From assembly GCA_023244895.1 (NCBI GenBank), contig JAHFLL010000001.1, forward strand, positions 489,802-553,801: 64,000 bases of DNA, in the 5' to 3' direction. The notes below the pieces were generated by a model that saw only the letters and a program-made list of their open reading frames with translations, searched no databases and was not told where the DNA came from. The translations under genes and the position numbers were made by a program. Numbering within the stretch: the first letter of the stretch is position 1; the number at the start of each line of letters is the position of its first letter. The stretch is from Candidatus Liptonbacteria bacterium (lineage in GTDB: Bacteria > Patescibacteriota > Minisyncoccia > UBA6257 > 2-01-FULL-56-20). Of this stretch, positions 32,569 through 33,576 are shown piece by piece.

Positions 32569-32721
32569 TGAGCCGTTGGCCGGAATTTCACTACTCGCCT
32601 CTCGGTAACCTCGGAGCTGCGCTTTCGGAACCCACGGTTCCGAATAACCTCCTTCTTCGGAGGGAACCCGGTAGCTTTCCCTCCGACACCTCCTTTCGTT
32701 CAAATTGAGCCGTTGGCCGGA
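32569..32721 (-). repeat. 16-bp duplication of the tRNA-Thr 3' end flanking a hairpin-rich insert (137-bp period)
   Basis: tgagccgttggccgga at 32569-32584 and 32706-32721; perfect hairpins at 32624-32644 and 32657-32686. Confidence 0.8.
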
Positions 32722-32965
32722 TTTGAACCGGCGACCTACTCCTTCGCTTACACCCCTATTTTCTAGACACTATTAGGGGACTAGACTGTATCTTATCCCG
32801 CGGAGCGGGACCCCTTGTCAGTCGTTCGAGCCGCTAAGCGGCTACGGTCTTAACCTGTGCAGGTCTTTAACCGTTATTCGGGATTCATCCGCGATGTTGC
32901 CATCGGGATGGGCAGGAGACTTGCGTCCCACCATGGAGTTGCTCTACCAACTGAGCTACAACGGC
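32708..32965 (-). tRNA. tRNA-Thr(GGU), intron-containing (exon 1 32930-32965, exon 2 32708-32744)
   Basis: Joined exons give a 73-nt cloverleaf: GCCGTTG/CAACGGC, ACTCC-ATGGT^AA-GGAGT, GCCGG-TTCAAAT-CCGGC. Confidence 0.92.
32745..32929 (-). ncRNA. Group I intron (185 nt) between tRNA positions 36 and 37
   Basis: Exon ends in U, intron ends in G; P7 GACTG/CAGTC with J8/7 TAAGATA; P2, P4, P5, P6, P8 and P9 stems all visible. Confidence 0.9.
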
Positions 32966-33576
32966 TTATCTACCTTATCAATAAGCCCGACCATTATATC
33001 CCTTAACTTTGTATTTGAAAAGTGGACAGTTATTACCCCGTACCTACTCTTCTTTCGGTAGGTTCCCAGCTTACCAGACCTGGTTACTGTTGGTTTATAA
33101 AACTGGCTCACTCCAACTCCCAGCTCTTTTTTCCAAAAATCCATAGCCTCTTTGGTATCTATGTCCGAGAACGTATGCAAATGGAATTTGAAATTGTTTT
33201 TATCTATCCCGAAAAATCTTTTAAGAAACTTCATAAACGCCAAGATTAGCTTGGGGTCAGAATTGCCCAACCGAACCTGATTTTTATCTGCCTTGGTGCC
33301 CTCGCCCCAATAGAGCCCTACGCCCAGCCCAAATAATCTGAAATCCTCTGGGGTTATGGGCGCGAAAAACTTGAATGGGTCTCCGTTCGGGTTGCATCTA
33401 GCGTAAACCGCATCACTAATGCTCCGTTTTTCTATCGCATATTTCAAAAGCCAATAATTAACTTTATTTTCGGAACAATTCAATATTTCAGAAATCTCTT
33501 TAGCGGATCTCTTCTTCGTTAGGTACAAATCTACAAGCATCTGCTCTGCAATTATCCCTCTATTACCCTTATTCAT
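32956..33576 (-). CDS. HTH + single-motif LAGLIDADG-like (homing-endonuclease-like) protein
   Basis: N-term HTH (SAKEISEILNCSENKVNYWL); LGVGLYWGEGTK helix and RLGNSDPKLI; stop codon lies inside tRNA-Thr(GGU). Confidence 0.7.
   Translation of the reverse strand: MNKGNRGIIAEQMLVDLYLTKKRSAKEISEILNCSENKVNYWLLKYAIEKRSISDAVYARCNPNGDPFKFFAPITPEDFRLFGLGVGLYWGEGTKADKNQVRLGNSDPKLILAFMKFLKRFFGIDKNNFKFHLHTFSDIDTKEAMDFWKKELGVGVSQFYKPTVTRSGKLGTYRKKSRYGVITVHFSNTKLRDIMVGLIDKVDKPL

Follow-up and report, generated by a model that had tools for sequence, protein, structure and literature searches.

The genome of Candidatus Liptonbacteria bacterium, a tiny Patescibacteria-type genome assembled as one contig of 840,672 bp (GCA_023244895.1, JAHFLL010000001.1), has a single tRNA-Thr(GGU) gene. 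ACC was the top threonine codon (4786 of the 11578 Thr codons in long open frames), and the gene was missed both by ARAGORN with default settings and by Rfam at gathering scores, as the first-pass annotation of this DNA had suspected for default tRNA finders. It was found in the window analyzed here, a stretch of 64,000 nucleotides covering positions 489,802 to 553,801 of the contig, where it is split after tRNA position 36 by an insert of 185 nt. This insert is almost certainly a group I intron, and we are confident that it interrupts the only tRNA-Thr(GGU) gene at position 36/37 and that it likely self-splices from the precursor RNA, leaving the mature tRNA. All coordinates below refer to the window unless otherwise given; the window features described are on the minus strand, and their RNA reads from higher to lower numbers.

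The 5′ exon (32930..32965) comprises tRNA positions 1–36 (36 nt) and ends with U36, that is, U at −1; the intron (32745..32929) contains no open reading frame (ORF) and ends in G; and the 3′ exon (32708..32744) starts with A37 and comprises positions 37–73 (37 nt). When the exons were joined in silico, ARAGORN recognized a 73-nt tRNA-Thr(ggt) with paired acceptor, D, anticodon, and T stems. Among 60 relatives searched at the DNA level, there were orthologous inserts (L002–L011) as well as intron-less alleles (L012, L016, L017, L019, and L020), which run uninterrupted through the exact same junction and thereby fix the splice sites. The ARAGORN call and the intron-less relatives both confirmed the earlier claim that excision of 32745–32929 yields a perfect 73-nt tRNA. 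No second Thr(GGU) gene was found in the single-contig genome, in which ARAGORN called 44 uninterrupted tRNAs; its intron mode detected both halves of the split tRNA with wrong boundaries.

None of 200 dinucleotide shuffles folded as well as the insert (z = −3.16), whose minimum-energy fold contained P1, P2, P4, P5, P6, P7, P8, P9.0, and P9. The first segment (32911..32929) consists of the P1 extension hairpin (32929–32914) and the internal guide GCC (32913–32911), which pairs with the exon GGU in a 3-bp P1 closed by the U-G wobble of the splice site. It is followed by P2 (32886..32910), whose GCAA tetraloop is predicted from covariation to dock on P8, here a plain helix, and by the 5′ strand of P3, CCCG (32879..32882), whose partner is C-AA-GGG at 32817–32812, giving three pairs, a 2-nt bulge, and one further pair. 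The P4-P5-P6 domain (32828..32874) has A-rich J4/5 and J5/4 and is made up of P4 (32874–32869 with 32849–32844), P5 (within 32868–32850), and P6 (32843–32829). Downstream lie P7 (ACGACUG, 32825–32819, with CAGUCU, 32788–32783), P8 (32811–32795), and J8/7 (32794–32789), all in the segment 32783..32825, and finally P9.0 (GU, 32781–32780, with GC, 32747–32746), P9 (32779–32753), and the omega-G at 32745, in the segment 32745..32782. Among the helices listed in the first-pass annotation, P4 was present but, with 6 bp (ACGGUU/GACCGU), longer than first stated, and P7 was present with one extra A-U pair beyond its bulged C, making six pairs. The G-C pair lying after this bulged C is predicted to bind guanosine, the role established for this pair in group I introns.

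A search pattern made of intron core bases only, without any exon base, matched at least 120 loci in GTDB (approximately 420 estimated), and among the matches listed with taxon titles nearly all belonged to the Candidate Phyla Radiation (CPR) or Patescibacteria. The examined set contained 131 loci, the 120 GTDB matches listed and 11 from relatives; 126 were resolved by script (123 uniquely, while three tied with other sites and were set by hand), one more was resolved by hand, and four were cut by locus ends. In 127 of the 127 resolvable loci among those listed, the insert followed U36 of tRNA-Thr(GGU) and ended in G, a count to be read with the scoring caveat given below. Family counts were based on the 123 distinct members among the listed loci. 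Their lengths ranged from 171 to 266 nt with a median of 194 nt (L022 is over-long since its 5′ half is doubled), and the exons were perfectly paired in nearly all listed family loci. The present copy is, as had been noted, shorter than the 205-nt Azoarcus intron; 93 of the 123 members were likewise below 205 nt, and 29 were of 185 nt or less, thus the word "minimal" applied to it earlier holds only in a relative sense.

To follow the family further, the covariance model R1 was built from 64 members; it scored the present copy, which belongs to the training set, at 169.8 bits. Of 149 other genomes of the order, 14 carried the family according to R1, and it was present in 8 of 149 genomes of the phylum, seven of the eight being parsed as Thr(GGU) 36/37, thus its supposed rarity was overstated. 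In the order sample, the intron-less allele occurred in 108 of 150 genomes and in none of the 14 intron-bearing ones, the remainder showing neither; the lack of an intron-less copy in these 14 genomes implies that the insert must be removed. As far as these comparisons go, the intron is one copy of a compact family common in Patescibacteria-type bacteria. In the present genome, no second intron of the Thr family was found at E ≤ 10, the core-motif matches elsewhere lying in protein genes. Rfam Intron_gpI matched 4 of 20 family members at 22–27 bits and gave no match at the present insert even at E ≤ 10, thus the covariance-model check proposed earlier was silent on this copy and positive for some of its kin; the gathering threshold of RF00028, 50 bits, is an annotation criterion and not a biological definition, and this copy falls below it. 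Other group I introns were also observed in genomes of the order (L316–L328): by eye, they occupy tRNA-Asn, tRNA-Asp, and tRNA-Tyr at 35/36 and have a longer P3, except that those of L324 and L328 lie outside tRNA genes. The Asn, Asp, and Tyr introns of CPR tRNAs matched the model weakly (20–37 bits) and have the P4 region in common with the Thr family; because of their longer P3 and different P7, the Thr family is regarded as a separate lineage.

The 64-member alignment supported the predicted fold, as 93.7% of its cells paired, compared with 79.8% after shuffling and 30–42% in slid controls. Two-sided changes were seen at 28 of 51 pairs, in P2 (9 of 10 pairs), P5, P6, P8 (5 of 5 pairs), P9, and P9.0, and P3 and P4 showed one-sided variation only. 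The P2 helix with its GCAA loop was thereby borne out, and P5, P6, P8, and P9 agreed with both the minimum-energy fold and the family covariation. Among the listed members the guide was GCC in 120 and GCT in three, so the pairing of the exon-terminal U with the guide G recognized earlier in P1 (GGU/GCC) extends to 123 of 123; the terminal G was likewise found in all 123, partly because of the scoring. P9.0 was Watson-Crick in 89% and 94% of these members versus about 50% in shuffled ones. GAAA loops go with a receptor-like P8, and other GNRA loops with a plain helix. The family conformed to this rule, a receptor-like P8 being present in 43 of 47 introns with a GAAA P2 loop and in 0 of 65 with other GNRA loops (11 were unclassed), and the present copy, with its GCAA loop and plain P8 helix, is as the rule predicts. 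P9 had a plain GNRA loop in 17 of the 123 listed members, and most others carried an enlarged A-rich loop (often UAUAA...GAA), the P5 CC pair being kept; the enlarged loop is perhaps a substitute loop-receptor contact.

P3 had been called weak in the first-pass annotation. It is indeed short, but its shortness is a family trait accompanied by compensatory changes. Among 43 introns selected through the neighboring ORF, where the 3′ strand of P3 was free of the search pattern (some bases were still set by the parser, and one row was parsed wrongly), CUCG/ACAAGAG occurred in two and CCUG/ACAAAGG in one, and two further compensations in the phylum sample brought the number to five. Based on these changes P3 is real but short. 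Lengthening it via the base preceding CCCG was not supported, as no covariation was seen there. P7 was unchanged in 42 of the 43 ORF-selected introns. The proposed P10 (CUCCU:AGGAG) can form 5 bp in this copy, but it gained no family support against shuffled exons: in the 123 listed members it exceeded them in only 1 of 12 position-by-register cells (0.75 vs. 0.65), and although the first pair, U with A37, was possible in 78%, longer pairing was about as frequent as with shuffled exons, for which reason a long P10 was rejected as a family trait.

The same fold also occurred in viruses. A 17-base core motif was found in 24 viral contigs of IMG/VR (L331–L354), all of which scored 80–138 bits with the family model. 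Of the 19 distinct phage copies, 12 had the first P4 pair changed from A-U to U-A, P4 being otherwise identical, and the copies in L339, L353, L342, and L345 had exon and guide changes that keep P1, including GAU/GUC and GCU/GGC (seen by eye, two also by script). Automatic picking of splice sites was unreliable in the phage copies and was not used for boundaries; by eye, the 5′ splice site of L333 may have C-A in place of U-G. Four of the eight scanned upstream frames matched PHROGs (major head protein, two; ribonucleotide reductase, one; endonuclease, one), and the presence of the same fold in phage protein genes means that it occurs outside tRNA. Transfers between phage and chromosome are likely in the history of the intron lineage. 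L345 and L352 contain two intron copies each, 468 bases apart.

Sequence and covariation together supported the splice sites, the U-G wobble, the P3/P7 core, P4–P6, P8, P9, P9.0, and the contact between the P2 loop and P8, thus the earlier assignment of a group I intron to position 36/37 of tRNA-Thr(GGU) was upheld by the junction, the core fold, and the covariation. Free guanosine bound in P7 would attack after U36 at the U-G wobble, the freed U36 end would then attack behind the terminal G, which P9.0 holds in place, and the exons would be joined, in line with the group I chemistry set out in PMC3984707 and PMC13168695. By this analogy, the intron very probably splices without protein. Several observations weigh against this interpretation. 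No spliced RNA was seen: no RNA run was found to contain this organism, and the spliced junction did not turn up in three RNA runs of the same study, which contained only short pieces from other organisms and were uninformative either way. The present copy has no Rfam match. The site scoring gave a bonus for U and G ends, hence the U and G counts are partly by construction, and three loci tied. Pairing counts take no account of kinship, P1 and P7 are invariant in the tRNA set and contribute no covariation there, and P7 and the 3′ strand of P3 were fixed by the search pattern. P3 has only three contiguous pairs plus one, which makes unaided activity less than certain.

Model group I introns have a P3 of 6–8 pairs. 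The short P3 could therefore mean that the intron is unable to splice alone and needs a host chaperone or the adjacent LAGLIDADG-fold protein (described below) as a maturase, an idea favored by the ORF abutting the tRNA in many loci and by the known LAGLIDADG maturases and host splicing factors (PMC3984707). We consider such assistance improbable, as 11 of the 14 intron-bearing genomes of the order sample had no close ORF homologue beside the tRNA, which implies that splicing is independent of the ORF, while the ORF also occurred at intron-less alleles (20 of 70 classed ORF-adjacent loci, the other 50 being intron-bearing), its paralogues adjoined other, intron-less tRNAs, and the same short-P3 fold was present in phage genes. 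The lack of an Rfam match would also suit a protein-spliced tRNA intron of archaeal or eukaryal type, or a dead insertion in a pseudogene. Bulge-helix-bulge tRNA introns are short, usually located at 37/38, and have no ribozyme core. In the present case, 185 nt hold a complete group I core that covaries, and the insert lies at 36/37, not at the canonical 37/38; it interrupts the only Thr(GGU) gene of a single-contig genome, and the exons are perfectly paired in nearly all listed family loci, thus both variants appear extremely unlikely.

The intron-bearing gene is adjoined by an ORF of 206 amino acids (32956..33576), which terminates within the 5′ end of the tRNA and encodes an N-terminal helix-turn-helix (HTH) and one LAGLIDADG-fold domain, making it a candidate free-standing homing endonuclease. 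The domain has an acid at the end of its first helix, and this G-E-G acid is invariant. Pfam LAGLIDADG_3 scored 15.7 bits against a cut-off of 22.5 and reached E ≤ 0.01 in 2 of 76 homologues; no clear family emerged for the ORF from Foldseek, PDB sequence profiles, PHROGs, or the protein atlas, and Pfam on 20 paralogues returned mostly HTH matches and no LAGLIDADG. The ORF was found beside the tRNA in many loci and was enriched next to intron-bearing alleles. Its paralogues (L149–L170) are docked in a similar way, 18 of 21 ending within approximately 30 nt of the 5′ ends of at least eight different tRNAs. The present genome itself has another, distant gene of HTH-LAGLIDADG-like type (G000:C1:675969–676328), ahead of tRNA-Gly(GCC). 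In L199 and L200 unrelated sequence follows the ORF in place of the tRNA, possibly through a later insertion after the ORF.

The intron lacks an ORF, and some relatives have it while others do not. It most likely spreads passively, and the LAGLIDADG-fold protein, whose gene abuts the 5′ end of the tRNA, would help its spread in trans. The adjacent gene likely encodes a homing endonuclease that could spread the intron, and collaborative homing by this gene appears likely, with one counter-example, G063, in which the ORF is intact although the neighboring allele is intron-less and has the commonest anticodon arm. That the protein cuts intron-less alleles at the anticodon arm itself is plausible, but we rate it somewhat below an even chance. 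A wider proposal is put forward tentatively and with still less assurance: a distinct lineage of very small ribozymes (171–266 nt, 3+1-pair P3, in CPR tRNA-Thr and phage genes) would be spread by collaborative homing, in which a docked HTH-LAGLIDADG protein cuts intron-less arms, the intron and stem changes confer immunity, and the nuclease is one branch of a family docking on other tRNAs. With regard to mobility, the ORF could instead be a decayed passenger or encode a DNA-binding regulator, WhiA-like and domesticated, with the intron being inherited mostly vertically with losses or carried on islands; this explanation deserves serious weight, about as much as the wider proposal. Against it, a selfish nuclease fits the patchy presence of the ORF (6 of 150 genomes), the frameshifted copies (L007, L032, and L059), the invariant acid, and the 18 docked distant paralogues, and the common anticodon arm was absent from all 20 classed ORF-adjacent intron-less alleles versus present in 26 of 50 intron-bearing ones. 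In 23 of 24 ORF-adjacent intron-less alleles the arm was changed, G063 being the exception.

Known introns offer a close comparison. The present one resembles the Azoarcus-type intron in its anticodon-loop site after U36, the lack of an ORF, the P2–P9 plus P9.0 architecture, and the lack of large peripheral domains (PMC13168695). It differs in its Thr(GGU) host, in being 20 nt shorter (the family reaching down to 171 nt), in the 3+1-pair P3, in the P7 5′ strand ACGACUG with its bulged C, in the GCAA loop on a plain P8, and in the usually enlarged P9 loop. Group IC3 introns have no P2.1, P5abc, or P7.1/P7.2 and show an L2-P8 loop-receptor contact. The 123 listed members are IC3-like in these respects; assignment to a group I subgroup goes by the best score against 14 covariance models (PMC6125680). 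In tFind, the intron-split bacterial tRNA classes were raised from 4 to 21, position 5 (36/37) is the classical site of Arg and Ile2 introns, and genomes of unnamed phyla were included (Williams, 2020; 10.1101/2020.01.27.920355). The present element is of the same kind as those classes, its site being Thr.5Ug in that naming, and the thresholds used there, 18–20 bits on Intron_gpI, would catch members scoring 22–27 bits (4 of 20). A 2025 preprint by Nakagawa et al. reportedly, by its title, concerns tRNA introns of Patescibacteria. Elements of the same type in the same phylum are in print: Lui et al. (2021; PMC8172020) described group I introns in some CPR tRNAs, which bears out the earlier remark that such introns are not unprecedented, and a review cites Castelle et al. 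(2018) for insertions in CPR tRNA genes (PMC9698310); no match was found in the supplements of PMC8172020. The novelty initially attached to the intron was therefore overstated. Our literature search, of partial coverage and hence no evidence of novelty, found no text naming a Thr(GGU) group I intron, and the Thr(GGU) 36/37 class is probably already in print.

Aspects that may be less well described are the short P3, the range of very small sizes, the connection to phages, and the docked nuclease; the literature search, of partial coverage, listed no paper on tRNA-docked genes of this type in CPR. As in the collaborative homing of phages, an ORF-less intron stands directly beside a nuclease-fold gene (PMC3984707). 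Unlike there, the setting is a bacterial chromosome, the putative target is a tRNA, and the candidate nuclease has a single LAGLIDADG-fold domain preceded by an HTH at the N terminus. Default tRNA and Rfam scans overlook the tRNA-Thr(GGU) gene in about one in ten genomes of the order (14/149), with consequences for completeness counts. With natural members as small as 171 nt and a 3+1-pair P3, the family would undercut the standard Azoarcus model in size, and it offers ready-made covariation data for loop-receptor swaps. If the adjacent protein does cut the intron-less site, this would explain the spread of ORF-less tRNA introns in bacteria, and collaborative homing, described in phages, would become testable on a chromosome.

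A second route of spread would be islands bringing an intron-bearing replacement tRNA. In L065 and L057 an integrase-like frame was observed downstream of the intron-bearing tRNA-Thr, and L022 has the doubled 5′ half mentioned above; islands may carry the intron-bearing tRNA. L065 (Niastella populi) was not accepted as a native Bacteroidota intron: it precedes the integrase-like frame, and an island or a misassembly may have put it there. On the 3′ side of the present tRNA lies a hairpin-rich repeat-like element (32569..32707) ending in an 18/19 copy of the tRNA 3′ end (32587–32569). A copy of this kind was found at 5 of the 123 listed intron loci, and look-alikes of the element were present in several family genomes, for example at L018; it is probably a separate small tRNA-linked mobile element outside the intron. 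The suspicion that the initiator tRNA is absent or hides another intron was rejected, as a second CAT tRNA appeared at a lower ARAGORN threshold; the two CAT tRNAs stand back to back at 642273–642493 of the genome. A tRNA-Ile with a UAU anticodon was also noted at G000:C1:27922–27996.
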